DNA of 64,000 nucleotides from a bacterium (GCA_018672055.1 JABHGM010000001.1:264884-328883), one strand, 5' to 3'. Counted from the stretch's first letter, positions 1,209 to 35,917 are shown. The notes: generated by a model from the letters alone, not told the origin. Numbers and translations: made by a program.

Positions 1209-3455
1209 TTATCTTTTATTAAATGGTCTATTTCCACCTTGATTACCACCACGTCTATTATCATTACTACCATGAGGACGTCTTGGACCACGACTAGGTC
1301 TTCTTTCTTCAACGTAACCTTCTGGTTTAGGTATTAATTCTTTTCTAGATAATTCAATTCTATCTCTTTCTTTATCAACGCCCATTACTTTAACTTTAAC
1401 TGTGTCACCTACGTTTAAGTAATCAGTTACTTTGTTAACACGCTTCCAATCAATATTTGAGATATGAACCATACCATCTCTACCAGGTAATATTTCTACG
1501 ATAGCACCAATTTCATCACCATTGTTTTGGCCTTTAATTATTTGACTTACTGTACCTTCATATTCTTCATTAACCTCAATATCTTTAGTTATATCATTTA
1601 TTCTCTTTACAGCTTTTTCATTACCTTCTTTATCTGTAGCTGTAATGAATACTGAACCATCTTGTTCAATGTCTATTTCAACTTCAAATTCTTCAATCAT
1701 CTTATTAATTATCTTACCGCCAGGACCAATAATGTCTCTAATTTTATCTGGATCAATATGAAGTGTAGTAATTCTTGGAGCATGATCAGATAAATCTTTA
1801 CGTGCCTCAGGTAAAGCTTTGTCCATTGTTTCTAATATTTTAAGTCTAGCTTCCTTTGCTTTAATTAATGTTTCAGCACATACTTCTAAGGTAATACCAC
1901 TTAATTTAATATCAAGTTGTATAGCTGTAATACCATTTTTAGTACCAGCTACTTTAAAATCCATGTCAAAAGCATGATCTTCAATACCTTGAATATCTGA
2001 TAATATCTTATAATTATTCTTATCTTTAAGATCAGTTACGAGTCCCATAGCAATACCAGCTACAGGTGCTTTAATTGGTACACCAGCATCCATTAAGGAA
2101 AGACTAGAACCACAAATTGAAGCTTGTGAGGATGATCCATTAGAACTTAATACTTCAGAAACTACACGAACAGTATACGGAAAGTCTTCTTGACTAGGTA
2201 GAACAGGAATTAAAGCTTTTTCAGCTAAGGCACCATGACCAATATCACGTCTTGAAGGACCTCTATTTGGTCTTACTTCACCTACAGAAAAAGCAGGGAA
2301 GTTATAGTGATGCATGTAACGTTTCTTACCTTCTTCTTCCATACCATCTAAATGTTGTTCTGCGCCAGGACCACCTAAAGTAACTACAGATAATACTTGA
2401 GTTTGACCTCTGGAAAATAATCCAGAACCATGAACTCTAGGTAAAATACCTACTTCTGATGTTAGATCTCTTATCTCATCAATCTTTCTACCATCAACAC
2501 GTATATCTTGAGTCATAACCATTTTACGAGCAGCTTCATTTAGATATTCATCTATCATAGAAACACCTTTAGCTCTTTGTTCTTTAGATACTTCATTATC
2601 TTCTTTTAAGATGTCACTAACTTCAGATTCTAAGTTAGCAATATTAGTTTTAGTTTCATCTTTATTATTATTAAAGACATCATTTACTTTATGTAGTATA
2701 TGACCTTCTACTTTTTTACGAATAGCTGCTAACTCTTCTTTATCATCTTCATTTTCTGATGTCTTTTCTTGACCTATTTTCTTTTGTATATCACCAATTA
2801 ATTTAACAATATCTTTTAAATTTTTGTGTCCAAGATTTAAAGCTTCAGTAGCTGTTTTTTCATCTATTTCTTTACCACTAAGCTCAACCATGACTACCTC
2901 ATCTTTATTACCTGTTAAAAATAGATCAAAATCAGAATTTTCACGTTCTTCGTAATTACTATTTAAAACTAATTTACCATCAACTTGGCCAACACGAATA
3001 GCAGCCACAGGACCATTCCAAGGAATAGATGAAATTGATAGGGCAGTTGAAGCTGCAATTAAAGCAGGTACATCTGGATCATTTTCATTATCAACAGATA
3101 GTACAGTAATTACTACTTGCACATCTTTACGTTCAGCTTCTTTAAAAAGAGGCCTAATTGAACGATCAATAACTCTAGCTGTTAAAACAGCTTCGTCAGT
3201 AGCTCTACCTTCGCGTTTAACCCATCTAGAACCTTTAATCTTTCCAGCTGCGTAAAGCTTTTCTTCGTAATCAACCATAAGAGGAAAGTAATCAATACCT
3301 TCTCTTGGTGTTCTGCCTGTAACAGCAGTTGCTAAAACAACGGTTTCTCCGTACTGAACAGTACAAGAACCGTGTGCTTGTTCGGCTAACTTGCCGATTT
3401 GAATTTTGAGAGGCTTACCAGCATACTCTAATTCAAAATCATGAATTTTTTTCAT
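1209..3455 (-). CDS. pnp: polynucleotide phosphorylase (PNPase), with Arg/Gly-rich C-terminal tail
   Basis: 748 aa; two RNase PH-like domains, KH and S1 domains recognisable (e.g. GPSRRDIGHGALAEKAL, S1 region GTVSQIIKG...GMVHISNI); synteny with rpsO upstream. Confidence 0.95.
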   Translation of the reverse strand: MKKIHDFELEYAGKPLKIQIGKLAEQAHGSCTVQYGETVVLATAVTGRTPREGIDYFPLMVDYEEKLYAAGKIKGSRWVKREGRATDEAVLTARVIDRSIRPLFKEAERKDVQVVITVLSVDNENDPDVPALIAASTALSISSIPWNGPVAAIRVGQVDGKLVLNSNYEERENSDFDLFLTGNKDEVVMVELSGKEIDEKTATEALNLGHKNLKDIVKLIGDIQKKIGQEKTSENEDDKEELAAIRKKVEGHILHKVNDVFNNNKDETKTNIANLESEVSDILKEDNEVSKEQRAKGVSMIDEYLNEAARKMVMTQDIRVDGRKIDEIRDLTSEVGILPRVHGSGLFSRGQTQVLSVVTLGGPGAEQHLDGMEEEGKKRYMHHYNFPAFSVGEVRPNRGPSRRDIGHGALAEKALIPVLPSQEDFPYTVRVVSEVLSSNGSSSQASICGSSLSLMDAGVPIKAPVAGIAMGLVTDLKDKNNYKILSDIQGIEDHAFDMDFKVAGTKNGITAIQLDIKLSGITLEVCAETLIKAKEARLKILETMDKALPEARKDLSDHAPRITTLHIDPDKIRDIIGPGGKIINKMIEEFEVEIDIEQDGSVFITATDKEGNEKAVKRINDITKDIEVNEEYEGTVSQIIKGQNNGDEIGAIVEILPGRDGMVHISNIDWKRVNKVTDYLNVGDTVKVKVMGVDKERDRIELSRKELIPKPEGYVEERRPSRGPRRPHGSNDNRRGGNQGGNRPFNKR

Positions 3456-3546
3456 ATTATTTTTCTTTCTTATTAAGCTGGTAATCAGATTACAGACCGT
3501 TCTATTAGAATAGTCTATCTATCTAACTACCAACTAATTAATTAAT

Positions 3547-4047
3547 TTATTTTATCTTCATTAAATATCTTTTCTTATCACGTGATAGATCAGTAAAGTC
3601 ATCACATATTTCAAGTAAGTTATGTGAAGAGCTTTCTTTAAAAGCAATTACTTCTACTTGTATTCCATTATTTTGTAAATATTCAACAAGTGGTACATAA
3701 TCACCATCACCTGATACTATAACTACGACATCAAGCTTAGATGACATTTTAATTGTATCCATAGCAAGACCTACATCCCAATCAGCTTTTTTAGCACCGC
3801 CAGCAAAGATTTGTAAATCTTTGGTTTTAATTTTAAAACCAGATTTTTCTAAGGCTCCAAAAAACATAGCTTCATCTTTATTTGGTGAAGTTATGACATA
3901 GGCCATAGCATTAACTAGTTTTCTGCCGGATACTGATTGTTTTAGTACTTCTTTAAAGTTCACTCTAGAATTATATATATTCTTAGCAGAGTGATACATG
4001 TTTTGCACATCAACGAATACGCCAATGCGCTGTTCTGGATGCTTCAT
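3547..4047 (-). CDS. NYN-domain (LabA-like, PIN-like fold) protein
   Basis: 166 aa; N-terminal IGVFVDVQNMYHS and VVIVSGDGDY acidic motifs typical of NYN/LabA domains. Confidence 0.75.
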   Translation of the reverse strand: MKHPEQRIGVFVDVQNMYHSAKNIYNSRVNFKEVLKQSVSGRKLVNAMAYVITSPNKDEAMFFGALEKSGFKIKTKDLQIFAGGAKKADWDVGLAMDTIKMSSKLDVVVIVSGDGDYVPLVEYLQNNGIQVEVIAFKESSSHNLLEICDDFTDLSRDKKRYLMKIK

Positions 4048-4048
4048 A

Positions 4049-4417
4049 TTATTTTTTTCCTTTCTTTTCTAATTCTTTTTCTTTGATTACTTTAGCTACT
4101 TCTGATAACTCTTCGTAAACTCTTTTTTTGATCTTAAGTTTTAATTTCTTAGCTAAAGTTTCAAAACTCTTTTCATTTTCTCTCTCTAGATAACGCAAAA
4201 GCTTCCTTCTTAGGGAAACCTTTCTAATTAAACCACGACGAGATGAATAATCTTTTTTGTGGTCTTTTAAATGCTCTGTTAATTCTTTAATTTCAGCAGT
4301 TAATATGGCAATCTGAATTTCGGGACTACCAGTATCATTAGCATGAGTCTTAAATTTTTTAATTATTGCTTGTTTCTTTTTTTTGTCTAACATAGTGTTT
4401 TCCTTATCGATATCCAA
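4049..4417 (-). CDS. rpsO: 30S ribosomal protein S15 with Lys-rich N- and C-terminal extensions
   Basis: Core [53 protein letters not shown] matches the S15 consensus; classic rpsO-pnp neighbourhood. Confidence 0.9.
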
Positions 4418-4564
4418 GTGAAGCTTAAGTTAGACTTATATGCTTTAACCGAGATATCGCTTATTAATTAGTATATATTAAAATAGCAAATATATTTACT
4501 TTTGTCAAGGTCTATTGAGTATAAAAAAAGAGCAGAGGATATCTGCTCTATATTAAGTTGATAT

Positions 4565-4870
4565 TTATGCGACTATTTTTTTTAGTCGGAAGTCCTGCAT
4601 ATGTCTAGAATAACCACTATCTGGGAAATGAACAATGACAAGCCAATTATTAAAATCATTATGATAATTTTGAGTAACTACTCCTTTTTTACCTTTAGAG
4701 CAGAAATCATATCGAGGATCAGCTTTTAGATCTTCAAGATCAACAGCAACTTCAATTTGGTCATTAATAAAGACATACAAACCATTACAGTCAATCCCTA
4801 TAGCTTTTTTTTGGTTTCTGGGATCATATTCATGTCGATTTGATTCATTTACAGTAAATGTATCATTCAT
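4565..4870 (-). CDS. hypothetical protein
   Basis: ORF track, 101 aa; own terminator hairpin at 4527-4551. Confidence 0.45.
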   Translation of the reverse strand: MNDTFTVNESNRHEYDPRNQKKAIGIDCNGLYVFINDQIEVAVDLEDLKADPRYDFCSKGKKGVVTQNYHNDFNNWLVIVHFPDSGYSRHMQDFRLKKIVA

Positions 4871-4962
4871 CTCTTTTCCCTCCTTATTTTTTTAGATTAT
4901 ATATAATTTAAATTTAAAGTCAAGGTATAATTATTTCACGACACTTGTGATATAATATATAT

Positions 4963-5667
4963 ATGCCAAATAGAGTAACAATTAATTTAGTCTTAAGAAA
5001 ATATATAGAAAGTTTAGAAGCACGTGATATGAATGAAAAGACTATTAGTAATTATTCATATTATTTGAATAGGTTTTTTAAATATTCAAATATTACTAAA
5101 CCTATTGATATATCCGAAGAAAAAGTAAAACTATTTAAAACATACTTACTTAAATTAAAAAAGAATAAAACTACTATTAATTATCATTTAATAGCTATAA
5201 GATCATATTTAAAGTATATGAGATTAAATAAGAAGGAAGTATTAAATTTTAAAAAAGTAAAATTATTTAAAACAACTTTTAAATTACAAACTACTACTAA
5301 AATAAAGATTGATAAATTATTAGAGGCACCAAGTAAAATACAAGCAAGTAAGATAATTAAATTAAGAGATAGAGCTATACTTGAAATAATAATTGAGAAA
5401 GGCTATAAAGTATCAAAGATAGCTAAATTAGATAGAAAGAATTTATTAAAGTTTTCAAAGCAATCAAAATATTATTTAAATAAATATTTAGCTTTAAGAA
5501 CTGATGATGCTCCATATTTATTTATAGGGCATGATAGAGCATTAAAAAAAAGAGAAAAGATTAAAGCGTTAAGTCCAAGATCAATACAACGCTTAGTAGA
5601 AAAATATGTTAAAGTCAGCGGTTTAAAAGATATAACACCAGAGACACTCAGACATATAAAAGGTTGA
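4963..5667 (+). CDS. tyrosine recombinase (XerC/XerD-like), C-terminally truncated before the catalytic Tyr; possibly inactive
   Basis: N-terminal SAM-like core-binding region (ISNYSYYLNRFFKY...INYHLIAIRSYLKY), box I Arg (LRDRAILEII) and box II ETLRHIKG present, but ORF stops about 35 aa short of the normal Tyr-containing end, 40 nt before tRNA-Arg. Confidence 0.5.
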   Translation: MPNRVTINLVLRKYIESLEARDMNEKTISNYSYYLNRFFKYSNITKPIDISEEKVKLFKTYLLKLKKNKTTINYHLIAIRSYLKYMRLNKKEVLNFKKVKLFKTTFKLQTTTKIKIDKLLEAPSKIQASKIIKLRDRAILEIIIEKGYKVSKIAKLDRKNLLKFSKQSKYYLNKYLALRTDDAPYLFIGHDRALKKREKIKALSPRSIQRLVEKYVKVSGLKDITPETLRHIKG

Positions 5668-5707
5668 CTTTTAAAGCTAAAAATGCTAATATATGGCGAG
5701 TTATTAT

Positions 5708-5782
5708 GCCCCGGTAGTTCAACGGATAGAACAACGGCCTTCTAAGCCGTGGATCTAGGTTCGATTCCTAGCCGGGGTACCA
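5708..5782 (+). tRNA. tRNA-Arg (anticodon TCT)
   Basis: Cloverleaf read by eye: acceptor GCCCCGG/CCGGGGT, D-arm AGTTCAACGGATAGAAC, anticodon loop CTTCTAA, T-arm GGTTCGATTCC, encoded CCA. Confidence 0.85.
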
Positions 5783-5783
5783 T

Positions 5784-5858
5784 GGTGCCTATGGTGTAGC
5801 GGTAACACACGGGTTTGTGGTACCTGTATCGAGGGTTCAACTCCCTCTAGGCACCCCA
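5784..5858 (+). tRNA. tRNA-His (anticodon GTG) with G-1 and encoded CCA
   Basis: Extra 5' G paired to discriminator C; anticodon loop TTGTGGT; T-arm GAGGGTTCAACTCCCTC; 3' end ...TAGGCACCCCA. Confidence 0.85.
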
Positions 5859-7421
5859 TAAGGAAAGAATAGGACTAAAATCTCTATTCTTTCTTTTATT
5901 TACGGGGTAAAATGACGGTTCTAACCTTTCCATCTGCTTTTCTATCTTTTTTTGATGGTTAGAAATGGGAACTAGCCATTCCATTGGTTTTATTTTGAGT
6001 TCACCATTAGTTAAAGTATAGCTTTGACCAAGGGTTGAAAATATATTTCGTTTAGTTTTTATGTCTCCGTTAATGAAAGATTTTTCTGCAGTAGCTACAA
6101 AATCAAAAGCTTCTTCCATTATATCGTTCCAATTTATAGCTCTATCTTGATTCTGAGATAGTTTTTGTTTTATTTCTGCAATTTCATTTTTTAATTTAGT
6201 TCTTTCGTGCATAAACTCTTCATCAGTTAATAAATCTTTTAATCTAAGTTTAGTAAGGTTGTCTGATTGAAGTTCTAGGCTTTTATATTTCTTCTTTAAA
6301 TTTGAATAAAGTTTATCTGTTATCTTAGTTTCATTTTTATGGTTTTCTGCTAATACTTCCAAAGCTAGTTTAGTAAAACCTGAAGGGATAGTATATTTTT
6401 TTAATTCATTGGTAATTTGTTTTTCTAAATCTTCTATACGAATTGGTTTTTCGTGACAATGAGAATCCTTTTTTCTTCTAGTACAACGATAGTATGTATA
6501 ATGTGCAGTTTTGTTGGTACTAACAATATGTTTATTTTTTGTTTCAGCAGTAATTGAACAACCACAATGACCACATTTTATTATTCCTGTGAAAGCAAAA
6601 TTATGTTTTTGAGGTTTTGGTTTGTTTCTATATCCTAATATTTCTTGTATTTTATTAAATTCATCTATGGTTATCATTGGTTCGTGTATTCCAACATACT
6701 CTTTTCCTTGATAGGTGATAGTCCCTGTATAGAATTTATTTGAGAATATTCTATAAAGACTACTCATTGCTAATGGTTTATTACCACTACGTTTGCTGAC
6801 AGGAGTTTTAAAATGATATTTTTTATTTATGATTGAAAGTATCTTAGGAACATTATGTTTTTCATTAAGCATTAAATTCCAAGCTTCTCTTATAATATTA
6901 AATCTTTCAGGGTCTTTTATAATAGTTTTATTAACTTTGTCATTTAAGTATCCAACTGGAGCTTTAGATATATATCCACCCTTTTCTACTTTTCCTTTAA
7001 GACCTCTTAAAGTATTCTTTCTAAGGTCGAGAATAAATTGGTTTGCCATGCCACTTTCTACACTGAACATCAATACATTATCTTCAGGCTTATATTCTTT
7101 GTCTATTGTTTGAATTGACTTAATAATTCCTTCTTGAAGTAACCATTGTATTCGGGCACTGTCTACAGGATTACGAGAAAGTCTATTAATTTGCCAACAT
7201 AAAATACCATCAGCTTTTCCAGACTCTATTGCTTCTATCATTTTATTGAATATAGGTCTATCATTAGGTTTTTTGGCTGATTTTGACTCTGTAAAGACTT
7301 TTATGACATTAATACCTAAATCATCAGCTAATCGTTTTAGATTACTGATTTGGTCATCAATGGACTGTATTTGTCTATCTTCACTTTCTTGAGATTTTCT
7401 TGCGTATAGATAGTAATTCAT
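5847..7421 (-). CDS. large serine recombinase (integrase), resolvase catalytic domain + recombinase domain + zinc ribbon/coiled coil
   Basis: 524 aa; N-term YLYARKSQESEDRQ...DGILCWQINRLSRN (resolvase/invertase catalytic core), central recombinase domain, CGHCGCS...YYRCTRRKKDSHCHEKP zinc ribbon; stop codon lies 12 nt inside the 3' end of tRNA-His. Confidence 0.9.
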   Translation of the reverse strand: MNYYLYARKSQESEDRQIQSIDDQISNLKRLADDLGINVIKVFTESKSAKKPNDRPIFNKMIEAIESGKADGILCWQINRLSRNPVDSARIQWLLQEGIIKSIQTIDKEYKPEDNVLMFSVESGMANQFILDLRKNTLRGLKGKVEKGGYISKAPVGYLNDKVNKTIIKDPERFNIIREAWNLMLNEKHNVPKILSIINKKYHFKTPVSKRSGNKPLAMSSLYRIFSNKFYTGTITYQGKEYVGIHEPMITIDEFNKIQEILGYRNKPKPQKHNFAFTGIIKCGHCGCSITAETKNKHIVSTNKTAHYTYYRCTRRKKDSHCHEKPIRIEDLEKQITNELKKYTIPSGFTKLALEVLAENHKNETKITDKLYSNLKKKYKSLELQSDNLTKLRLKDLLTDEEFMHERTKLKNEIAEIKQKLSQNQDRAINWNDIMEEAFDFVATAEKSFINGDIKTKRNIFSTLGQSYTLTNGELKIKPMEWLVPISNHQKKIEKQMERLEPSFYPVNKRKNRDFSPILSLWGA

Positions 7422-7423
7422 TT

Positions 7424-7750
7424 TTAAAAAAATATTATTTTAATAATCCAGACACACAAACCTAAAATACCAATTACAATAGCTGGGGTTCCCCAAACTA
7501 AATTTGCACTTGTTTGCATATCTAATGCTTTTTCTTGTGTTTTCTTTGTAGCTATGACTGGGACTATAAATAAAATATCAATTAATAATCCAAAACATGC
7601 ACCAAACAATGCAAAGCTTAAAATATTTTTATTTAAAGCTAATCCCCAAATGCCTATTGAGATTGTCCAATAAATTATAAAAGTAAAACCAACAGTAATT
7701 GCCATAGTTATTGCTTGGCTTCTTGTTATTAGTGTTTGATTTGTTTTCAT
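7424..7750 (-). CDS. small membrane protein (3 TM), co-oriented immediately upstream of the recombinase
   Basis: ORF track 108 aa; hydrophobic; 2-nt gap to recombinase start. Confidence 0.45.
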   Translation of the reverse strand: MKTNQTLITRSQAITMAITVGFTFIIYWTISIGIWGLALNKNILSFALFGACFGLLIDILFIVPVIATKKTQEKALDMQTSANLVWGTPAIVIGILGLCVWIIKIIFF

Positions 7751-7756
7751 ATGATA

Positions 7757-7906
7757 TTAATTAATTAATTTATTTAAGTCTTCTTCTTTTATCCTCCATT
7801 GCCCAATTTTAGTAGCTTTTAATTTACCGCTTTTAATATATCTATAAACAGATTTTTCAGATACTTTAAGTATTTTTGCTACTTCTTGTAATGTATATAA
7901 TTTCAT
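7757..7906 (-). CDS. excisionase-family / MerR-like HTH DNA-binding protein (candidate recombination directionality factor)
   Basis: Unlisted 48-aa ORF translated by hand: MKLYTLQEVAKILKVSEKSVYRYIKSGKLKATKIGQWRIKEEDLNKLIN; matches the excisionase-family HTH pattern (T..EVA..L.VS..TVYR.I..G.L.A.KIG..WRI...DL). Confidence 0.6.
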   Translation of the reverse strand: MKLYTLQEVAKILKVSEKSVYRYIKSGKLKATKIGQWRIKEEDLNKLIN

Positions 7907-7910
7907 GTTT

Positions 7911-8114
7911 CTATTTTTTTTTATCGGGTTTAACCCAAAAATAAATTAATAATATTCCTAAAAATATCCACCAGGTTATTTGAGCTAATTCTACTCTTGA
8001 TTCATACTCTGGTCTTTGCAAGCATCCTATCATTACTATTATAAAGATAAAAAACCAGGCTTTAAGGAGCCAACCAATTATTATTGCAAAAAATTTTCTA
8101 TCTATTTTTTTCAT
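7911..8114 (-). CDS. small membrane protein
   Basis: ORF track 67 aa; two hydrophobic helices. Confidence 0.4.
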   Translation of the reverse strand: MKKIDRKFFAIIIGWLLKAWFFIFIIVMIGCLQRPEYESRVELAQITWWIFLGILLIYFWVKPDKKK

Positions 8115-8158
8115 AAATTACTATTTTAGTATTTCATGCATGTCCAGTTTTGTCCAGT

Positions 8159-8482
8159 CTAGTTATCCACCTTCTTTAAGACTGAATATTTAGAAGCTTG
8201 TTTAAGTAAGGGACGCAAAATTATATATTTTGGAATGGAATAATAATCATTTACATTTACTAGTTTGAAAGCTGAATATACTTCATTTTTACAAAACGCC
8301 AAATTTAATTCCTCTAAGCAAACAATTATTGAATTTAATAATACTAAATCACTCCAACCTTTATATAGTTTTCTTTTTCTAAGTATATTGAATATTCTCC
8401 TAATACGGTATCTCTTTTTTCTAAACTTCTTTAAATCTTTTTTTAAGTATTCAAGTATACTTTCTATTTTTAACTCTAACAT
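8159..8482 (-). CDS. hypothetical basic protein
   Basis: ORF track 107 aa; Lys/Arg-rich N-terminus; direct-repeat motifs upstream (8517-8580). Confidence 0.4.
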   Translation of the reverse strand: MLELKIESILEYLKKDLKKFRKKRYRIRRIFNILRKRKLYKGWSDLVLLNSIIVCLEELNLAFCKNEVYSAFKLVNVNDYYSIPKYIILRPLLKQASKYSVLKKVDN

Positions 8483-8584
8483 ATGTTACTTTATTATTAT
8501 TATTTGTTATTAGATGATATAGGAATAAACTATATAGTTACATACATACATGTGACACTATATAGTAACCTAGTTACATATAGG

Positions 8585-8950
8585 CTAGAAAGGAATACTT
8601 TCTTCTTCTGTTTCATTATTTTCAATTTGGAATTTATTCTTATAATATTCTTTAGTAACCTTTTCGTATTCTTCAACAATTCTTTTTTGTAGTTGTTTCC
8701 ATATACCTTCATCATCTATTACTACTTGGGGTCTCCATTTACCATAAGCATATACGCATGGGGGAGTAATCCAGTATTTACTTCCATCTTCTGTTGGCTT
8801 GTCTAAACGAATTACACGATATCCCTTCAGTATGAGCTTTTTATAGGTACATATGACTCGAGCTAGCACCTTGCCCTCTTCCTTGATTTCTACGCCAATT
8901 TTGAATTGATTTATATCAATATTGGTGATGTTATTTTCTTCTTGCTTCAT
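8585..8950 (-). CDS. hypothetical protein
   Basis: ORF track 121 aa. Confidence 0.45.
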   Translation of the reverse strand: MKQEENNITNIDINQFKIGVEIKEEGKVLARVICTYKKLILKGYRVIRLDKPTEDGSKYWITPPCVYAYGKWRPQVVIDDEGIWKQLQKRIVEEYEKVTKEYYKNKFQIENNETEEESIPF

Positions 8951-9193
8951 TGTTTCTTTGATTAGTTTTTAAATTATGATAAATTATTGTTTCTATAAAC
9001 AAAATAAGTTGGTTTAAAGCATCACTTGCATCATCATAGCTAGGTTCATATCCAAAGTATGTTGAATGGAGTTTTTGGTATCCTTTAATTTGTTTTTCTG
9101 TTAGCATATTTTCATATTAACAAAAATAAAAAAGATTACGGGCGTAATCTTGTTAGTTCATACTATCTATGTATTATTTCATATTATTTCATA

Positions 9194-10135
9194 CTATTTC
9201 TTTTTTGGTTTTATGTCTCTTATAATTTTTTTCAAATCAATATTTTTAGTTTTATTAACTGTTACAGGATTGATTAATTTAATAGCATCTTTTGAACTAC
9301 TAGGGAAAAACCATTTTTTAAGTTCTTTCTTAAATCCTAAATCAGCTATTACTTTGGTTAAATCTTTTGTATAATCTTTTTCTTGCTTAGCGATTTCTTT
9401 CCTTCTAACCTTTTTATTTGCATGTTCGAAAATATATTCAAATGCTTGCTGATTTGGGCTATCGAAATTTGGTCTTGATAGTAAAATCCCATTTATTCTT
9501 ATTTCTTGATTTAACTCATCATAATCAACCTCAACCTTAAGAGATTCTTTATGTATGATACTGGAAATTTTTGCATTAAGTTTAGTATTTACGTCTTTTT
9601 TTTCGATTAACGATTTTATTTTTTCGAATAATAAATTCTTTGATTGTACTTGAAAGTCAACATTTATTTCATACAGTAATTCGTCTGTTGGTACTATCTT
9701 ATATTTTTTTACATTTTCTATAAGTGATTTCACGAGTATTTCAGTTTTAGCAGGATTAGCAATGCCAGACATTATTTTTTTTAGCTTTGATATTTTATTA
9801 CTTTTGCCACGGGATATTATTTTTTCTTCTGATAATTCTGTAAGAATAGAGTCAAATAAATTTCTATTAATCACAAATTGTGTATTGTTTATTCTAAAAA
9901 AGTTAGATAAGGAATGTCCTTTTACTATTCCAAGTTTATTAAGTGTAACTGACTTTGTAGGATAGTTGTCATTTATTTCATTAATTTTACTTAGTATATG
10001 ATGAATAGCTTCATCTTTAGATTTAGATGAGAAGTAAAATAAACCTCCTTGTTCAAGTATTTTAATATGTTGGTTAACAACATCCTCGTTCGCCTTAGTT
10101 TGTGTATTTTTATTTACCATACATATACTGTACAT
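9194..10135 (-). CDS. hypothetical protein (313 aa, Lys-rich)
   Basis: ORF track; terminator hairpin AAGATTACGGGCGTAATCTT just downstream on minus strand. Confidence 0.5.
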   Translation of the reverse strand: MYSICMVNKNTQTKANEDVVNQHIKILEQGGLFYFSSKSKDEAIHHILSKINEINDNYPTKSVTLNKLGIVKGHSLSNFFRINNTQFVINRNLFDSILTELSEEKIISRGKSNKISKLKKIMSGIANPAKTEILVKSLIENVKKYKIVPTDELLYEINVDFQVQSKNLLFEKIKSLIEKKDVNTKLNAKISSIIHKESLKVEVDYDELNQEIRINGILLSRPNFDSPNQQAFEYIFEHANKKVRRKEIAKQEKDYTKDLTKVIADLGFKKELKKWFFPSSSKDAIKLINPVTVNKTKNIDLKKIIRDIKPKKK

Positions 10136-10584
10136 TTTTGTCTTAATTTAGGCAATATGTACGCGTGCAAGTCTACTATCAAAAACAATATTATCATATT
10201 TTACTGGTTAAAATGTATGTGTATCAGATAAAATCATTAGTTTTTTATAACAATAAAACTAGACATAAGTGCTAATTTTAAGACAAAAGAGTTTAAAACT
10301 GCTGTAAAGTATAGACAAAATATTGGTATAGTGTTGTGACTATGTAGTACCTTACCATAGTGGAAATTAGGATGTGGTTCTACCCCCCCCCTCTAATTCA
10401 TTTATTTAAAGATTGCGAAATTTAATAGTTAATAGTAATATAAAATAGAAGACAAATTGACAAGATAATAAGACTACATGGCTTATTTGTCGAGTCCAAA
10501 GTATTTATCACAATAATGATTAGGGGGGGATTGATGAAAATCATATATTGTGTAATAATTTAATTTATTAAACTTATTAAAAAT

Positions 10585-11319
10585 ATGAGTGATTACACTA
10601 AAAATTTTTTAACAGACGTTATTTTTAAAGTAGATTTCCCAGTTATTTTAGATTTACAAGATAGTCCGCCAAAGGAGTTTCAAAATGCAATCAAAGAAGA
10701 ATACCCTATTTTAGAGCCGTTTCAACAATTTAGTTTTATGATGGATAAGGAGTCAGAAGAACCCCCTCAGAATCTTAACAGAACTATATGGAAGTTTATG
10801 TCAAAAGATAAAAATAGGTCTATTGAACTTAGCTATCAGTCTTTAATAATAGTTTTTAAAGATTATCAAAGTTATGAAGATTTTAGAGAAATCATAGAAA
10901 AGATAATGGCTATATTTAATGAATTATATAAGAATGTTATAGTAGATAGAATAGGCTTACGATACATTAATCAAATAGAGTTGGAAGAAGAAGATATTTT
11001 TAATTGGGGTGATTATATTAATGACTGTTTGATATCTAATATAGATTTCTTAGAAAACAAAAATCAGATTAAAAGAACCATAGACATATTGGAGCTATCT
11101 TTAGATGATGAAGTTACACTAAATTTCCGATGGGGAATATATAATAGTTTATATCCTAGTGAAGTATCAAAGAAAGAATTCCTTCTAGACTTTGATTGTT
11201 TTACTCGTGTACAGATTGAAAGTGACCAGGTTATTGGAAAATTAGATATTTTTAATAGTATCATAACAGGATATTTTGAGAAAAGCATAGAAGATAAGTT
11301 TAGAGAATTATTAAGATAA
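10585..11319 (+). CDS. uncharacterised protein, resembles the sporadically distributed TIGR04255 family (RIGLRYIN motif)
   Basis: 244 aa; motif ...VDRIGLRYINQIEL... recalled from TIGR04255-type proteins; first gene of a 3-gene co-directional module. Confidence 0.5.
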   Translation: MSDYTKNFLTDVIFKVDFPVILDLQDSPPKEFQNAIKEEYPILEPFQQFSFMMDKESEEPPQNLNRTIWKFMSKDKNRSIELSYQSLIIVFKDYQSYEDFREIIEKIMAIFNELYKNVIVDRIGLRYINQIELEEEDIFNWGDYINDCLISNIDFLENKNQIKRTIDILELSLDDEVTLNFRWGIYNSLYPSEVSKKEFLLDFDCFTRVQIESDQVIGKLDIFNSIITGYFEKSIEDKFRELLR

Positions 11320-11329
11320 TTAAAAAAAT

Positions 11330-11536
11330 ATGTTTAATGGAAATATAAAACTTTCGTCTGCAGAAGAACTTTCGGATTTATCAAAAATCGAAAAGACTGA
11401 ACCAAGCAAAAGAAACACCAATGAATCAAATGATAATGAACTCTCTAGAGATTATGATGTGGTAGGCAGGGAAGAACTAAAATACTATAAATCTAAATCA
11501 TTAAAAGCCAGCCGAATCGTTATAAAACTAGATTAG
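11330..11536 (+). CDS. small hypothetical protein
   Basis: ORF track 68 aa; 10-nt gap from upstream gene, 4-nt gap to downstream gene. Confidence 0.4.
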   Translation: MFNGNIKLSSAEELSDLSKIEKTEPSKRNTNESNDNELSRDYDVVGREELKYYKSKSLKASRIVIKLD

Positions 11537-11540
11537 TGTT

Positions 11541-12113
11541 ATGTTTATAAAGTCCAATAGCGAGAGAATATGTCAAGGGGATATTTTAGAAGATATTGAG
11601 TATTTGTCTCCTATAAGAAATAAAAATGATATTATAATAAATAAATTCATATTACCTTACATAGTAGTTTTGACTCAAGATTGCGATTTGAAGCAAGATT
11701 ATGGAACAAGAAACGATACCACTAGTCAAGATAATGATAAGTTTCTTAAATCATTATTAGTTTGTCCTGGTTATATAGCTAAACAAGTCAAACAAGGCAC
11801 ACATCTGGAAAGTCTGAATTTAAAAATGGGCTATTTAGGGAGTGATATCTGGAAGAGAGTAACTAGAAATGAAGACAAAAGGTATCATTACTTAGAAGGT
11901 AGGAAAAAAGTTGGCGAAGAATTAGTCGATATAGAAGATATAGTCTTAGATTTTAAGCATTATTATACTATACCTTGGGAAACTATGTATGAGCATCATA
12001 AAGATAAATATTTGATATCTTTAGATAAATTATATAGGGAAGATTTATCGCATCGTTTCTCACATTTTTTATCTAGAATTGGATTGCCTGATTTGAAGAC
12101 TAAAGATGAATAA
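11541..12113 (+). CDS. hypothetical protein, third gene of module (acidic motifs QGDIL...VLTQDCDL)
   Basis: ORF track 190 aa; no family recognised by eye. Confidence 0.45.
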   Translation: MFIKSNSERICQGDILEDIEYLSPIRNKNDIIINKFILPYIVVLTQDCDLKQDYGTRNDTTSQDNDKFLKSLLVCPGYIAKQVKQGTHLESLNLKMGYLGSDIWKRVTRNEDKRYHYLEGRKKVGEELVDIEDIVLDFKHYYTIPWETMYEHHKDKYLISLDKLYREDLSHRFSHFLSRIGLPDLKTKDE

Positions 12114-12328
12114 TGATAAAGAAGAAATCAGTAATTTTTTAAATATATGACATCAAAACTGTTTGCATATTTAGGATTAGGTATAATTGTTTATGTTATT
12201 GCTTGTTTTGTTACACAAACTTGGTTGGGCTTAGGCGGTTTTTTAGGAACTTTGTTTGTGGCAGGAATTATCTCTTTTCTTGTAGAAGAAACCGAGAAAA
12301 ATTAGATATTAAGTATTGCAACTAATCA

Positions 12329-12400
12329 ATTTAGTTCGAACATCCTCTACGAAGGGACCCCAAATTACCATCTATATTTATAGGTGGTTTTTTGATATAC
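12329..12400 (+). repeat. intergenic repeat unit R1 (core TTAGTTCGAACATCCTCTACGAAGGGACCCCA + hairpin type a + T-run)
   Basis: Seen directly; hairpin CCATCTATATTTATAGGTGG followed by TTTTTTGATATACT, 28 nt before start of next gene. Confidence 0.85.
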
Positions 12401-12427
12401 TTAATTTATATTATTAAATAAAAATTT

Positions 12428-13486
12428 ATGAAGAAAGTAATTATTTTTGTCTTAGCCTTAACTTTGTTATTAGGTAATTTTAGTTATGTTAAAGCGGAAG
12501 ACTTAGGTCAAAAATTAAAAGGTAGAATCCTTTTACAAGTAGAATCACGTGGTGAAGCTTGGTATGTTAATCCAGAGGATGGTACTAGAATGTATATGAA
12601 GGATGGTAATACAGCTTATTCAATGATGAGAAATTTAGGTCTAGGTATTACTAATGCTAATTTAGAGAAAATACCTATTGGTTTAGAAGAAAGATTTGAA
12701 GAATTGGATTCAGATAACGATGGTTTAAGTGATAAATTAGAAGAAGCTTTAGGTTCAGATAAATACGATACTGATACCGATAATGATGGATATTTGGACG
12801 GTGATGAGGTTAAAAATGGGTATGACGTATTAAGTAGTAACATCACTAAATTAAGTTATGATAATAATTTAGTGAATAACTTGAAAGGAAAAATACTCCT
12901 GCAGGTAGAATCACGTGGTGAAGCATGGTATGTTCACCCTGTTGATGGTAAAAGATATTATATGACAGATGGACCTGCTGCTTATCAAATAATGAGATAT
13001 TTGAGTTTAGGTATTACAAATAGCGATTTAAGAACAATAAGCTATAATAGAGAATATACTAATTGGTCAACATATTCTGACGAAAACTATAATTTTATAA
13101 TTAACTATCCTGAGGATTGGGAATTTTCAGAAATAGAGCTACATTACCAAGATAACTCAAGTCCATATATGATAGGTCTTAGACCTACTACCGTTGTCCA
13201 CGATTTTCAGTGGGGAGTTAATGTTTATGATAAAAATTATGTAGACATTCAAGAAGTAGCTGGCATGGGTGGAACTCAGTTTGAGGATAGAATAGTAAAA
13301 GAAAATGAGCTAATGGTTGGCGGTTTGCCAGCTTTAAGATACATTGTAACAACTGAAAGCATTCCAGATTGGTATTCTGAACAGATAGTTATTGAGGATG
13401 AGGATTATATATATACTATAGGTAATGGTGCTGTTGAAGATGATTTATTTACTGATTTTTATAATAGTTTTAGAATTCAGAAATAA
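12428..13486 (+). CDS. secreted protein with signal peptide, two copies of a ~55-aa internal repeat and Asp-rich Ca-binding-like linker
   Basis: MKKVIIFVLALTLLLGNFSYVKA signal; repeats KGRILLQVESRGEAWYVNPEDGTRMYMKDG... / KGKILLQVESRGEAWYVHPVDGKRYYMTDG...; DSDNDGLSD...DTDTDNDGYLDGDE. Confidence 0.6.
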   Translation: MKKVIIFVLALTLLLGNFSYVKAEDLGQKLKGRILLQVESRGEAWYVNPEDGTRMYMKDGNTAYSMMRNLGLGITNANLEKIPIGLEERFEELDSDNDGLSDKLEEALGSDKYDTDTDNDGYLDGDEVKNGYDVLSSNITKLSYDNNLVNNLKGKILLQVESRGEAWYVHPVDGKRYYMTDGPAAYQIMRYLSLGITNSDLRTISYNREYTNWSTYSDENYNFIINYPEDWEFSEIELHYQDNSSPYMIGLRPTTVVHDFQWGVNVYDKNYVDIQEVAGMGGTQFEDRIVKENELMVGGLPALRYIVTTESIPDWYSEQIVIEDEDYIYTIGNGAVEDDLFTDFYNSFRIQK

Positions 13487-13498
13487 TAACTCATCAAC

Positions 13499-13569
13499 TT
13501 AGTTCGAACATCGTCTACGAAGGGACCCCAAATTACCATCTATGTGTATAGGTGGTTTTTTGATATACT
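13499..13569 (+). repeat. intergenic repeat unit R2 (core with CATCGTC variant + hairpin type a)
   Basis: Seen directly; begins 12 nt after stop of upstream gene. Confidence 0.85.
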
Positions 13570-14131: not shown

Positions 14132-14183
14132 TTATATTGGTAATTTATTAAACTCTACTGATTATAACTCATAACTTATCAAC

Positions 14184-14250
14184 TTAGTTCGAACATCCTC
14201 TACGAAGGGACCCCACAGAAATCTCTCCTGAAATATGGAGGGATTTTTGT
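14184..14250 (+). repeat. intergenic repeat unit R3 (core + hairpin type b ATCTCTCCTGAAATATGGAGGGAT + T-run)
   Basis: Seen directly; followed by a second hairpin (AGCCTATTAAAATTATAGGCT) serving the convergent minus-strand gene. Confidence 0.85.
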
Positions 14251-16050: not shown

Positions 16051-16157
16051 TTTTGTCAATCCTAGCTCATATTGTATTAACTTAGTTCGAACATCGTCTA
16101 CGAAGGGACCCCAAATTACCATCTATGTATATAGGTGGTTTTTTGATATACTTAAAT
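16051..16157 (+). repeat. intergenic repeat unit R4 (TTTTGTCAAT -35-like box + core + hairpin type a)
   Basis: Seen directly; upstream part TTTTGTCAATCCTAGCTCATATTGTATTAAC aligns with R7. Confidence 0.85.
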
Positions 16158-16840: not shown

Positions 16841-16860
16841 TTCAACAATTTCAATATCAA

Positions 16861-16927
16861 TGGTTCTGAACTCATCCCGTAGGGGACCCCACAAAGACAT
16901 CTTCCTTAATTGGGAGGTGTTTTTTTT
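16861..16927 (+). repeat. intergenic repeat unit R5 (diverged core TCTGAACTCATCCCGTAGGGGACCCCA + hairpin + T8)
   Basis: Seen directly; homologous but diverged from the R1 core. Confidence 0.7.
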
Positions 16928-16986: not shown

Positions 16987-18438
16987 ATGTCTGAAGAAGT
17001 AATATTAAGATTTAACAAAGTTGATTTTGAATATGAGCATAAAAAACCGATTTTACATCAGGCTAGCTTTAGTATTCGTCAGGGAGCTAAATTTACTTTA
17101 ATGGGTCAAAATGGAGCTGGTAAAAGTACTATCTTTAGTTTAATTAAAGGCAAACTTAAAGCCGATAGTGGTATGATTTCAGTGACAGGCAATGCTTCTA
17201 TTGGTATAGCTAATCAAGTAATAAGTCGTGCTGATTATCCTTTAACTTTGGAAGAGTATTTTGCCAAAGCTTTTAATTCAATACCTGGTGATTTAAAGAG
17301 TAGGATTGCTAAAGTAATGGATGCTGTTAATTTAGAAATACCTTTCGAAAGAATAATTGGAGAATTATCTGGCGGACAACAAGCTAGAATTTTGTTAGCT
17401 TACGCTTTAATTCAGAATCCAGATGTTTTATTACTGGATGAACCAACAAATAATTTAGACAGAGCTGGCATAGATCATTTAATTGGTTTCTTATTAAGTT
17501 ACTCTAAGACAGTCTTAGTAATTTCACACGATGCTGACTTTTTAAACTTATTTACAGAAGGAGTTATTTATTTAAATAATTTTAATCATGAAACTGAAAT
17601 GTATGTTGGAGATTACTACTCAGTAGTAGATGAAATTAAGGCTAGAGTTGATAGAGAAGAAAAACTTAATGCACAATTAGAGAAGAAAATCCGTGATCGT
17701 AAAGATAAGGTAAACTTCTTTGCTAATAAAGGTGGTAAAATGAGGCAGCTTGCTAAGAAGTTAAAAGAAGAAACTAAGGTAATGGAAGAAAACAAAGTTG
17801 AGGTTAGAAAAGAAGATAAGGTCATTAGAAATTTTAATATACCTGCACAAGATATTACTGGCACTATTGTTAATTTAACAAAGATAAAAATTATAGCAGA
17901 TCATCAACCTATTATAAAAAAGGTAGATATTGAATTAAAGAGAAGAAGTAGAATGTTAATAGTTGGTCCTAATGGTATTGGCAAGAGTACATTATTACGC
18001 AATCTATTAGCTCAAAAAGAAGATGGGTTAATTATCTCTCCTGATGTTGTTGTTGGCTATTACAGTCAAGATTTTGCATCATTAGATTTTGATCAAAAGG
18101 TTTTTGATTCTTTAAAAGAAGCTAGTTTAAATTCTACTGATGAGCAAGTTATTCGTTCTGTTGCAGCAAAGTTTTTACTAACCAGTGATTTAATGGATAA
18201 GCTAATTTCTGCTTTATCAGAAGGACAAAAAGGTTTACTTTCTTTAGCTAGATTAGTATTGATGAAACCCGGCCTATTGATTTTAGATGAACCAACTAAT
18301 CATATTAACTTCAGACATTTACCAATAATAATTGAAGCTTTAAATAGCTATGATGGAGCTTTGATGATGGTTAGTCATATGCCAGAGTTTGTAGAGAAGA
18401 TTGAATTTAATCAACAACTAGATTTAAGTAAGCTTTAA
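16987..18438 (+). CDS. ABC-F family ATPase (tandem ABC domains, no transmembrane domain)
   Basis: Two Walker A (GQNGAGKST, GPNGIGKST), two signature motifs (LSGGQQ, LSEGQKG), Walker B LLLDEPTN/LILDEPTN, charged inter-domain linker. Confidence 0.85.
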   Translation: MSEEVILRFNKVDFEYEHKKPILHQASFSIRQGAKFTLMGQNGAGKSTIFSLIKGKLKADSGMISVTGNASIGIANQVISRADYPLTLEEYFAKAFNSIPGDLKSRIAKVMDAVNLEIPFERIIGELSGGQQARILLAYALIQNPDVLLLDEPTNNLDRAGIDHLIGFLLSYSKTVLVISHDADFLNLFTEGVIYLNNFNHETEMYVGDYYSVVDEIKARVDREEKLNAQLEKKIRDRKDKVNFFANKGGKMRQLAKKLKEETKVMEENKVEVRKEDKVIRNFNIPAQDITGTIVNLTKIKIIADHQPIIKKVDIELKRRSRMLIVGPNGIGKSTLLRNLLAQKEDGLIISPDVVVGYYSQDFASLDFDQKVFDSLKEASLNSTDEQVIRSVAAKFLLTSDLMDKLISALSEGQKGLLSLARLVLMKPGLLILDEPTNHINFRHLPIIIEALNSYDGALMMVSHMPEFVEKIEFNQQLDLSKL

Positions 18439-18525
18439 AAGTTTTATTATAAATTTTTATAGCCTTTATTTTATCCTTAACATTAGTCATATATTCTCTA
18501 TCAGATAGAATAGTTATAATATCAT

Positions 18526-18578
18526 TCTGACACTCACCCCAACAGAAATCTCTCCTGAAATATGGAGGGATTTTTTTA
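18526..18578 (+). repeat. intergenic repeat unit R6 (CTGACACTCACCCCA variant + hairpin type b)
   Basis: Seen directly; followed by GGGGCAGACTATTGTCTGCCCC hairpin for the convergent gene. Confidence 0.75.
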
Positions 18579-19243: not shown

Positions 19244-19330
19244 CCTATCTCATAATGTATCAATTTAGTTCGAACATCGTCTACGAAGGGACTCCACAGA
19301 AATCTCTCCTGAAATATGGAGGGATTTTTG
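19244..19330 (+). repeat. intergenic repeat unit R7 (TTTTGTCAAC box + core + hairpin type b)
   Basis: Seen directly. Confidence 0.85.
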
Positions 19331-20383: not shown

Positions 20384-20390
20384 AGATCAA

Positions 20391-20457
20391 CCTAGTTCGA
20401 ACATCCTCTACGAAGGGGCCCCCAACAAAAAACAAGGTTATTAAGCCTCGTTTTTTG
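20391..20457 (+). repeat. intergenic repeat unit R9 (core CTAGTTCGAACATCCTCTACGAAGGGGCCCCCA + A/T-stem hairpin)
   Basis: Seen directly; begins 8 nt after stop of upstream gene. Confidence 0.8.
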
Positions 20458-20782: not shown

Positions 20783-20912
20783 ATGTCAACCCTAAATAAT
20801 AACCTTCATATACTGTTTCCAAACATCTCTGAATATACTATTTAAGAAAATTTTAATAAAGTTACGACTGCCACCCCACAGAAATCTCTCCTGAAATATG
20901 GAGGGATTTTTT
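20783..20912 (+). repeat. intergenic repeat unit R10 (ATATGTCAAC box + second-family core + hairpin type b)
   Basis: Seen directly; followed by ACACCCAGTTTAGTAATACTGGGTGT hairpin for the convergent gene. Confidence 0.8.
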
Positions 20913-27346: not shown

Positions 27347-27595
27347 ATGTTTATACCAGCTTTAATTATCATCGTTGGTTTAATATGGCTGTTTACTAAT
27401 CTTGGTATTATATCTACAAGTGCTTGGGATGTTATATTACCCCTAGCAGTTATCTTGTTTGGTATATCAATGTATGCTAAACATGGTAAATGTTGTAAGC
27501 CAGGATTACCTAAAGGTCAAGCTCCTCATGAAGGACATGGTCACGAAGGTCATGATCATGAAGGACATGGTCATAAATGTTGTCAGGATAAGTAA
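27347..27595 (+). CDS. small membrane protein with His-rich metal-binding tail
   Basis: Two TM helices then HEGHGHEGHDHEGHGHKCCQDK. Confidence 0.45.
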   Translation: MFIPALIIIVGLIWLFTNLGIISTSAWDVILPLAVILFGISMYAKHGKCCKPGLPKGQAPHEGHGHEGHDHEGHGHKCCQDK

Positions 27596-30476: not shown

Positions 30477-30538
30477 AAAAAGGTTAGTTAGACTAACCTT
30501 TTCAGTTAAGAAATATTAAGGAATTATTATTCCTTATT

Positions 30539-30916: not shown

Positions 30917-31080
30917 TTCTTTCTCCTATTGTTATTTAAGAACGTATTTATTAGTTCCATTGTAGTATATGATACTAACAGATTTGCTATTTTTAGTCAA
31001 CCTATCTTAAATAAAAAAAGGCTAGACTTGCTAACCTTTTAAATTGAGAAATATGAAGGAATTATTATTCCTTCTTTGTT

Positions 31081-31716: not shown

Positions 31717-31859
31717 TTTTGTCTCCTATTTGTTTATGAGCGAAATATTATTTATATTAATAATATAAAATAATAGCAGATTCATTATTTTTAGTCAATT
31801 TAGTATAAATAAAAAAAGACCAGATAAAGCACTGGTCTTTTGTAATTCAAGGGATAGGA

Positions 31860-32219: not shown

Positions 32220-32365
32220 TACTTTCCCCTTTATTTTATTAAGAACATTAAATAATACATAACAGTAGCATTGTAGGCATATTTAGTCAATGGTTTGAAA
32301 GCTTTGCTTATCATGCGCGTCTTAATAACTAAGTAGATATATTCTATTTAATTAATAAGATAAAT

Positions 32366-35894: not shown

Positions 35895-35917
35895 AAAAAA
35901 GAAAGGAAAAAAATAAT

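Follow-up and report, generated by a model that had tools for sequence, protein, structure and literature searches.

Characterised serine integrases mostly target protein-coding genes, and the use of tRNA genes as targets is a habit of tyrosine integrases. In SCCmec, the large serine recombinases (LSRs) CcrAB or CcrC drive insertion at the 3' end of a housekeeping gene, and its tandem arrays also contain pseudo-elements that lack a recombinase and have the same att-type sites at their ends. In mycobacteriophage BPs, attP lies inside a gene and integration gives a C-terminally shortened protein with different properties; there it is the repressor gene that is split, and a tyrosine recombinase serves as the integrase. 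This phage displays integration-dependent immunity (PMC4557955). Integrases with the att site in their own gene, the "suicidal" tyrosine type, have been reviewed as exclusively archaeal (PMC8371274). The tycheposons of Prochlorococcus are tRNA-seeded, and 27 of 937 elements carry a large serine recombinase (10.1101/2020.12.28.424599). In this study, we describe a locus in 64,000 nucleotides (nt) of bacterial DNA (GCA_018672055.1, JABHGM010000001.1:264884-328883; the whole stretch is called the window hereafter) in which the gene for an LSR of 524 amino acids (aa) runs into a convergent tRNA-His gene and is followed upstream by an array of short repeats. We consider it quite probable, as one reading, that the integrase belongs to a large, uncharacterised LSR group in the ultra-small Patescibacteria (Candidate Phyla Radiation, CPR) that uses the 3' ends of tRNA genes as attB; that the attP of this clade lies inside the 3' end of the LSR open reading frame (ORF); and that the repeats are distal attachment sites which delimit one LSR unit and about eight short units lacking an LSR. 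We found no description of this family-level architecture in the literature that was searched.

The window protein is an LSR by its domain content, with a catalytic domain carrying the serine nucleophile, a recombinase domain, and a zinc ribbon with a coiled-coil insertion. The Pfam matches to Resolvase (PF00239, 5e-21, residues 4-149), Recombinase (PF07508, 3e-08) and Zn_ribbon_recom (PF13408, 2e-12) each lie above the cut-off. The catalytic motif YARKS (S10) is intact, and an alignment of 36 homologues shows this motif, R8 and other catalytic-domain residues to be near- or fully invariant; the four Cys residues of the zinc ribbon are invariant among homologues. In the AlphaFold2 (AF2) model of the homologue P0099, long paired helices (354-458) are inserted after the zinc ribbon. 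The protein is not a Ccr or XisF equivalog, its scores being under the NCBIfam equivalog cut-offs for CcrB (72 against 900 bits), CcrC (67 against 900), CcrA (55 against 700) and XisF (109 against 375), and none of the phage LSRs in GenBank exceeds about 27% identity to it. What is known of LSRs predicts that it would integrate by recombination of attP with attB and would need a recombination directionality factor (RDF) for excision from attL and attR. The first-pass annotation had placed the stop codon of a 524-aa minus-strand LSR 12 nt inside a tRNA-His that begins at 5784; coordinates, ARAGORN and Pfam all agree with this, the encoded G-1 of the tRNA being at 5784. The TAG stop (5847-5849) lies within the 3' acceptor strand of tRNA-His, so that the two convergent genes share 12 nt (5847-5858); CTAGGCACCCCA, read in antisense, supplies the final codons (W-G-A-stop).

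This overlap recurs throughout the family. At E <= 1e-20 the database holds 3376 homologues; the best 120 of them are 46-77% identical to the window LSR, 116 of these 120 cover at least 96% of the query, and the named sources among these 120 are Patescibacteria/CPR metagenome bins. Many GTDB records with a CPR-type LSR (L011, L016-L019 and others in our numbering of loci) are titled "uncultured Gammaproteobacteria", Methanosarcinaceae, Scalindua and the like; these are probably mislabelled bins or contaminant contigs. For a survey of the family we took one genome per species (GTDB), which gave 80 loci with 46-58% LSR identity. In 66 of the 80 the 3' end of the LSR gene overlaps the 3' end of a convergent tRNA gene, namely 31 His, 11 Asn, 9 Gln, 8 Trp, 2 Asp, 2 Ile, 2 Ser and 1 Met, and at several further loci the C-terminal peptides are recognisable as tRNA antisense. 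Since the overlap recurs in so many independent species-level loci, it is not a matter of chance. The nearly invariant C-terminal Trp (W522) is encoded by TGG, the antisense of the encoded CCA. The Arg-His tRNA pair, which in the window is spaced by 1 nt between tRNA-Arg and the encoded G-1 of tRNA-His (5783), also adjoins related LSRs in other genomes. Moreover, LSRs that are 31-32% identical and lie at the ends of 35-60 kb IMG/VR contigs display the same overlap with tRNA-Gly or tRNA-Thr.

The second junction type was recognised through the repeats of the window. Their common core is 38 nt long (ATCAACTTAGTTCGAACATCCTCTACGAAGGGACCCCA) and aligns to the 3' part of tRNA-His with about 5 extra bases. 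A hidden Markov model (HMM) of this core, run with nhmmer against the LSR loci, found the motif in 23 other loci (35 hits). Every one of the 35 runs parallel to the tRNA and is confined to the element side, at a distance of 3.5-11.2 kb from the tRNA; the host side has none. In each site the final 6-9 nt are a copy of the 3' end of the tRNA beside that locus's LSR (GACCCCA or CACCCCA for His, GGAGCCA for Asn, TAACCA or GAGCCA for Gln, CCTGCCA for Trp). A hairpin terminator follows each site, as expected for the host's original tRNA terminator. The distance from the G of GTTC to the terminal A is 28 nt in 19 of the 25 scorable sites, compared with 23 nt in tRNAs (G53 to A76). In a model based on LI integrase, the motif bound by the zinc-ribbon domain (ZD) is 5 bp nearer to the crossover in attB than in attP half-sites (Rutherford, 2013; PMC3783163). 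The 5-bp shift of GTTC together with the copied tRNA ends indicates that the repeat is the P arm, and that the T-arm and acceptor end of the tRNA are the B arm. Judged from these sequences, the ZD shift that separates attP from attB half-sites in LSR systems is present here in the left half-sites. Both junction types, the tRNA overlap and the distal P-type site, are conserved across the family.

Other traces of recombination were looked for with different outcomes. A displaced 3' end of tRNA-His was not found in the window, a 25-mer with up to 3 mismatches matching only itself and a 13-mer giving hits at chance level; exact repeats of the attL region of at least 11 nt are absent upstream of the LSR in nearly all relatives, and the P-site pattern (D3) had no hit in viral contigs. 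In L059 a 24-nt 3' fragment of tRNA-Asn (3288-3311, T-loop to CCA) was probably left as a scar by a different integration at that tRNA, one that crossed in the T-loop; the genome concerned (OZ246416.1) has two LSR elements, one at tRNA-His and one at tRNA-Asn. Our first estimate of the crossover was based on this fragment and was dropped, the fragment being 90 nt beyond the real P-site and belonging to a different event. L017 carries at 1826-1866, 0.5 kb past its P-site, a 40-nt copy (39/40) of the terminator arm at the LSR end, joined to sequence that loosely resembles a tRNA-His end.

The P arm is at the same time a coding sequence. In the LSR frame it encodes W-x-x-[VI]-V-[ED]-D-V-R-T-[IA]-[IF]-...-Y-[IV]-Y-I-P-[DN]-L, followed by a stop a few codons on, which amounts to a C-terminal tail of 25-30 aa. 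This in-frame tail is conserved at 20 of 28 sites outside the window, and its YIYIPDL block is 50-70 nt from the crossover, outside any LSR half-site. The entropies of the three codon positions are 0.75, 0.68 and 1.45, third positions being about twice as variable as the others, which demonstrates constraint at the protein level. The tail is uninterrupted in about 8 of 119 database homologues, and in the metagenome contigs L107-L109 the P arm, core and P' arm are contiguous, with no tRNA: these are LSR genes in the unintegrated (attP) state. In an AF2 model of one tailed homologue (pLDDT, the predicted local distance difference test, 82.8) the junction falls in the middle of a C-terminal helix (516-543) and the last ~19 residues are disordered; the model suggests no function for the tail. 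A TACTCAT motif about 45 nt upstream of the core in several P-sites (L040, L041, L045, L058, L059) corresponds to the N-E-Y codons of the tail, and CTCAT persists in the window P-sites, where the tail ORF is broken.

With attP so placed, integration would exchange the last 17-30 residues of the LSR for a few that are encoded by the tRNA (WGA* in the window) and would leave all domains intact. The P' arm would lie next to the tRNA and replace the tRNA's own terminator, and the P arm would move to the far end of the element. The LSR gene in its integrated form is probably still functional, as judged from its catalytic and DNA-binding domains, which are in one piece.

At the tRNA-proximal junction, which the first-pass annotation took for the left end of an LSR-driven integrative element and which our results support as attL, the comparison with the distal sites narrows the point of exchange. 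The block shared in the window reads AGGSACCCCA, and on alignment of the two junction types the crossover must fall within the shared core at 5849-5858, the last ~10 bp of the tRNA. Its centre is predicted near 5853-5854, about 4-5 nt inside the CCA end, because of the symmetric CACGA...TCGTG around the core and the register of the outer motif (16-24 compared with 11-19). The P' arm of all family members has a hairpin and a T-run right after CCA; the stem sequences vary and the pairing is kept. In the window this hairpin has a folding energy of -14.3 kcal/mol (z = -5.05). RNAalifold gave a consensus of only 4 bp on the ungapped P' alignment, and an 8-bp helix was then tested explicitly: in 63 sequences 77% of the cells are paired, compared with 61% in shuffles, and 92 cells are changed on both sides, compared with 44 in shuffles; neither value was reached in any of 500 shuffles, and controls slid along the alignment pair at 32-56%. 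The 45 nt of the P' arm have a double use in that the minus strand encodes the LSR residues before W522 and the plus strand is a terminator for tRNA-His.

In the window, seven good P-type sites end at 12362, 13530, 14215, 16113, 16891 (a variant), 19296 and 20423, and two degenerate P-like sites end at 18542 and 20880; all nine are in the orientation of tRNA-His (Table 1). The first-pass annotation had held that the right boundary could not be fixed from the sequence, a view that these recognisable distal half-sites overturn. The right halves of the nine junctions are four terminator hairpins (T1 three times, T2 four times, T3 and T4 once each), joined at ...CCCCA to the same left half. The small units between them measure 0.5-1.9 kb and have one or two genes each, with their own promoter or terminator; their products are secreted and membrane proteins, a lipoprotein, an ABC-F protein and a cold-shock protein. 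If the nearest site is its true end, the LSR unit spans 5859-12362 (6.5 kb), and it would reach up to 10.3 kb if a later site (to 16113) were the end. [quoted passage not shown] It had been supposed that promoters on the plus strand drive the repeats as small RNAs; this was wrong, the strong TTGACA-17-TATTAT promoters beside the half-sites at 16076 (r16076) and 19259 (r19259) lying on the minus strand and serving neighbouring genes.

Table 1. Features of the tRNA-His locus and the adjoining array (positions counted from the first nucleotide of the window)
Feature	Position	Strand	Remarks
Xer-like tyrosine recombinase gene	4963-5667	+	Host side, upstream of tRNA-Arg; 234 aa, C-terminally truncated, ends ...TLRHIKG
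tRNA-Arg(TCT)	5708-5782	+	Host side; ARAGORN; Rfam tRNA 70.5 bits
tRNA-His(GTG)	5785-5858	+	ARAGORN; encoded G-1 at 5784, CCA encoded; Rfam tRNA 60.3 bits
Putative B arm of attL (3' part of tRNA-His)	~5830-5858	+	T-loop GTTC (G at 5835), 23 nt from terminal A
LSR, 524 aa	5847..7421	-	Tail-less integrated form, ends ...SLWGA*
Core common to attL and distal sites	5849..5858	+	AGGCACCCCA compared with AGGGACCCCA
Putative P' arm of attL	5859..5903	+	10-bp hairpin GAAAGAATAG/CTATTCTTTC, then T-run TTTTATTT
108-aa hydrophobic ORF	7424-7750	-	2 nt upstream of LSR; judged a membrane protein from sequence
49-aa HTH_17/excisionase-family ORF	7757-7906	-	PF12728, TIGR01764, PHROGs
Rest of LSR-strand operon: ORFs of 67, 107, 121, 58 and 313 aa	7911..10135	-	ORF calls
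Divergent cargo operon of LSR unit	10585..12305	+	TIGR04255-family protein (244 aa, 6.6e-37), then ORFs of 68, 190 and 52 aa
P-type half-site 1 and T1	12325-12362 (to 12394)	+	Nearest candidate attR, 6.5 kb from tRNA
P-type half-site 2 and T1	13493-13530 (to 13562)	+	Closes 1.17-kb unit, 352-aa secreted repeat protein
P-type half-site 3 and T2	14178-14215 (to 14248)	+	Closes 0.69-kb unit, 177-aa Cys-rich secreted protein
P-type half-site 4 and T1	16076-16113 (to 16145)	+	Closes 1.9-kb unit, 561-aa lipoprotein (-)
Variant P-type half-site 5 and T3	16854-16891 (to 16924)	+	Closes unit with 139-aa and 72-aa membrane ORFs
ABC-F ribosomal-protection-like ATPase gene	16987-18438		Within the unit ended by the 18542 site
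Degenerate P-like sequence, CACCCCA end (18542), and T2	18505..18575	+	Closes ABC-F unit
P-type half-site 6 and T2	19259-19296 (to 19329)	+	Closes unit with 177-aa ORF (-)
P-type half-site 7 and T4	20386-20423 (to 20460)	+	Closes unit with 80-aa ORF (-) and 187-aa ORF (+)
Degenerate P-like ...TACGACTGCCACCCCA (ends 20880) and last T2	20843..20911	+	Outermost att-type junction; closes cold-shock-protein unit

It seems most likely that repeated LSR-type recombination at tRNA-His would build such an island, newer units pushing older ones outward; the small units might still be mobile. Serial (tandem) insertion is directly visible in two relatives. In L007, whose LSR is 77% identical to that of the window, a second element of 9.5 kb (3217-12701) lies between tRNA-His and the LSR, with an exact 13-bp repeat at its flanks. 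The LSR end carries the 13-bp relic TTAGCCACCCCAT, identical to the end of the host tRNA-His, and the tRNA itself is 9.5 kb off. The genes of this second element are ImmA/HTH_3, DUF2188, ADP-ribosylglycohydrolase, AAA_25 and a different LSR of 460 aa. The four contigs with an L007-type LSR all begin at the same point, ~1.64 kb upstream of the LSR. L110 has its LSR fused to a P arm that belongs to the adjacent, defence-rich unit (HEPN, Panacea, type III restriction-modification (R-M)), and the LSR's own attR-type site is 9.9 kb upstream. Furthermore, two P-sites in L039 enclose a Doc/Fic toxin unit of 0.7 kb. The variant site of the window (r16854) shares its P-arm subtype with the LSR-fused P arm of L110 (P0019), and its membership in this second subtype argues for independent arrivals in the array.

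Several findings weigh against this reading of the locus. The context is identical in 24 of 24 long contigs of the species as to the LSR, the left and right flank genes and the ABC-F unit. The predicted attP junction (...CTACGAAGGGACCCCA joined to TAAGGAAAGAATAGG) had 0 hits in JGI metagenome contigs, and the empty tRNA-His site of the species (predicted as ...CCCTCTAGGCACCCCA joined to CAGAAATCTCTCC or to AATTACCATCTAT) was not found in metagenome contigs; the 3' end of tRNA-His with a continuation other than the LSR gave 3 hits there, all in unrelated organisms. The window P-sites keep only WGPFV[ED]DVRTKLI of the tail, then diverge and stop after 17-23 codons without YIYIPDL (half-site 4 has the longest tail of the standard copies, 23 codons, and variant site 5 has 30); these sites may be decayed, or may be conserved as DNA sites only. 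The junction modules of the array are 89-98% identical, and local duplication or gene conversion could also yield them. As to the generality of long arrays, relatives were read to 10 kb upstream of the LSR, and each locus has at most two P-sites there. Lastly, the right-hand half-sites (P' and B') have little sequence symmetry to the left ones, which makes the site model incomplete. Strain-level empty sites were sought through the LSR, the Xer-like gene, MscS and the ABC-F gene, and every match showed the same occupied context. No close LSR-free relative was found by the right flank, where the 429-aa protein is an ORFan and the best non-self match of MscS is 57% identical, and no related genome without the recombinase was found for a comparison of the downstream gene content. 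No excised circle, empty site, strain variation or other sign of present mobility was found in this species.

Many of these findings would suit the view that the island is an immobilised relic, in other words an old, fixed and vertically inherited element whose array arose mainly by duplication or gene conversion of one attR region and whose LSR moves nothing, which we consider possible and on balance unlikely. The identical island in every contig read, the missing attP and attB junctions, the degenerate P-site tails and the similarity of the junction modules are all in its favor. It is also favored by the fact that several species have an LSR and tRNA-His locus next to the same Xer/PNPase host genes, the LSR being diverged (47-58%) to much the same degree as PNPase (53%). 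However, the LSR has an unbroken ORF in which every conserved catalytic residue is present, and its closest relative is 77% identical (HTH protein 86%), compared with 57% for the best non-self match of a host gene, MscS. In addition, one site (r16854) is of a different P-arm subtype, four right halves are joined to the same left half, and the cargo is wholly different among species that have a common host flank. The view that there is one island of ~20 kb from the LSR to ~26.1 kb, as had been proposed on first inspection, with a right end that has no sequence signature since serine integrases make no long repeats, is very improbable. The genes between 20.9 and 26.1 kb do look accessory, most small ORFs there having no Pfam match and the 429-aa protein matching only itself, and core genes (MscS, ferredoxin, OFOR) begin at 26.25 kb. 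Nevertheless, the family has a distal site, which in relatives is 3.5-11.2 kb from the tRNA, all copies in the window are at 12.3-20.9 kb, and no att-type site exists in the window beyond 20.9 kb, including the region near 26 kb. That the 38-nt repeats are regulatory, 3'-untranslated-region/terminator modules or a small RNA, the true distal end being unmarked or lost, is scarcely credible, for in spite of an intrinsic terminator after each copy, a conserved 110-nt module in which three copies stand ~60 nt before start codons, and a lack of population variation, the motif occurs in 23 other genomes solely on the LSR element side and solely in tRNA orientation, its inner bases track the tRNA abutting the local LSR, it encodes the conserved LSR tail in frame, it is fused to LSR genes in attP-state contigs, and nothing in the array matches Rfam at gathering thresholds.

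It remains to consider the genes of the LSR unit under the reading that we prefer, an LSR-built array at tRNA-His. The gaps between the LSR, 108-aa, 49-aa and 67-aa ORFs are 2, 6 and 4 nt, which fits one operon. The 108-aa ORF upstream of the LSR, taken for a membrane protein at the outset, is judged hydrophobic from its sequence and would accordingly be one; it has no family match in a Pfam search, and in the 77%-identical L007 element the ORFs at its position are different ones. The first-pass annotation also drew attention to a small helix-turn-helix (HTH) ORF missing from the ORF track; the sequence it quoted is exact and the length is 49 aa instead of the 48 aa given. Its excisionase-type signature was borne out in HMM searches by PF12728 HTH_17 (1e-18, 67.7 bits, cut-off 27) and TIGR01764 "excise" (2e-11, 44 bits, cut-off 28.8), and PHROGs also groups it with excisionase families. 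The protein is 86% identical to its counterpart beside the LSR P0002 (the LSR-linked HTH protein of the L007 element is likewise 86% identical). A role as the RDF is plausible on these grounds, and either this HTH_17 protein or the exchange of the LSR tail may set directionality. Across the family, 25 of 81 loci have a small HTH_17-like ORF on the element side and none has one on the host side, with varying position and strand; only 5 of these ORFs share the strand of the LSR and fall in the 3 kb upstream of it, and the others belong to a different subfamily, on the opposite strand, 3-8 kb off.

Farther upstream, the 107-, 121- and 58-aa proteins have homologues that hold the same position in other elements: that of the 107-aa protein is in the P0002 element, those of the 121-aa and 58-aa proteins are just upstream of the L059 LSR, and the 121-aa protein is also found in L058, L078 and L087. 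The element is not a recognisable prophage, as there are no Pfam structural domains and the PHROGs matches among 10 element proteins searched are the LSR, the HTH ORF and phrog_5464, a family of unknown function matched by the 244-aa ORF (E = 6e-05). For most element proteins, no function emerged from PHROGs, PADLOC or Pfam. The ABC-F protein scores 320.9 bits on NF000355, under its cut-off of 380 bits. On the host side, the truncated Xer-like protein has neither the second catalytic His nor the Tyr, and its orthologues at the same position (L011, L017, L021, L034, L085) are 305-332 aa long; the missing piece was not found elsewhere in the window.

Other features of the window were noted in passing. 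An adenosylcobalamin (AdoCbl) riboswitch is present at 41008-41155 on the plus strand (74.6 bits, full model covered). A perfect 25-nt inverted repeat (4044-4068 and 35897-35921, 31.8 kb apart; AAAAGAAAGGAAAAAAATAATATGA on the gene strand) has copies that resemble identical ribosome-binding-site and start regions of two genes. Just past the MscS gene, at 27526-27580, there is a 15-nt tandem periodicity that forms a His/Glu/Gly-rich repeat (HEGHGHEGHDHEG...). Intergenic repeats of 75 nt and 64 nt, 77-83% identical, occur at 30470-32220 between three paralogous minus-strand genes (125, 211 and 119 aa), which resembles a local tandem gene family.

Serine integrases have become common tools of genome engineering, where each is valued for a fixed and unique target. 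Here is a clade of thousands whose target appears to be modular, composed of the T-loop and a short inner block that tracks at least 10 tRNA species (eight in GTDB, plus Gly and Thr in viral contigs). The clade would overturn two textbook generalisations, namely that tRNA targets go with tyrosine integrases and that integrases with the att site in their own gene are only archaeal. It also provides a handle on the gain of accessory and defence genes in CPR bacteria, whose genomes are tiny and in which few mobile elements are known; ABC-F, Doc, HEPN, reverse transcriptase and type III R-M genes are among the cargo across the family. In annotation, such islands can be delimited from sequence alone by means of the conserved P-site. 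We raise only tentatively, and rather doubt, a wider scheme in which LSR-based gene capture in CPR bacteria would have an integron-like layout, the tRNA 3' end serving as the primary site and small units, each with a promoter, a terminator and one P-type site, being stacked and reshuffled by the LSR, the tail swap would set the direction, and retargeting would be achieved by the 6-9 inner bases of the P arm alone, since the outer motif is the universal T-loop.

In comparison with known systems, the window LSR has the domain set of the phage and integrative and conjugative element (ICE) LSRs (A118/LI, phiC31, Bxb1, phiFC1), the same 5-bp shift of the outer motif between P and B sites, and the integrase gene at the end of the element. 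It differs from them in that attB is a tRNA 3' end, the outer motif is the T-loop, and attP lies inside the integrase ORF, which alters the C-terminus. The likeness to integrons is one of architecture only, as the window recombinase is a serine enzyme and not IntI, and the repeats are LSR P-type half-sites with terminators. SCCmec differs in its target, which is rlmH and not a tRNA, and in the size of its units, which in the window are single-gene sized. In contrast to phage BPs, it is the integrase itself that is shortened here. The tycheposon islands are the closest described process, being alike in the outward displacement of older elements by newer ones, with partial sites and cargo remaining. 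However, tycheposons have mostly tyrosine integrases and partial tRNA copies at their flanks, whereas the sites described here are P-type half-sites that share 6-9 nt with the tRNA, the window has very short, regular units, and the family lives in CPR hosts. With the archaeal SSV-type "suicidal" integrases, this family has in common the site within its own gene, the tRNA target and the splitting of the ORF on integration, but it is bacterial, uses serine chemistry, and has only the last 17-30 residues split off. By this analogy, the window family would be a milder, bacterial, serine-type counterpart of the "suicidal" integrases.

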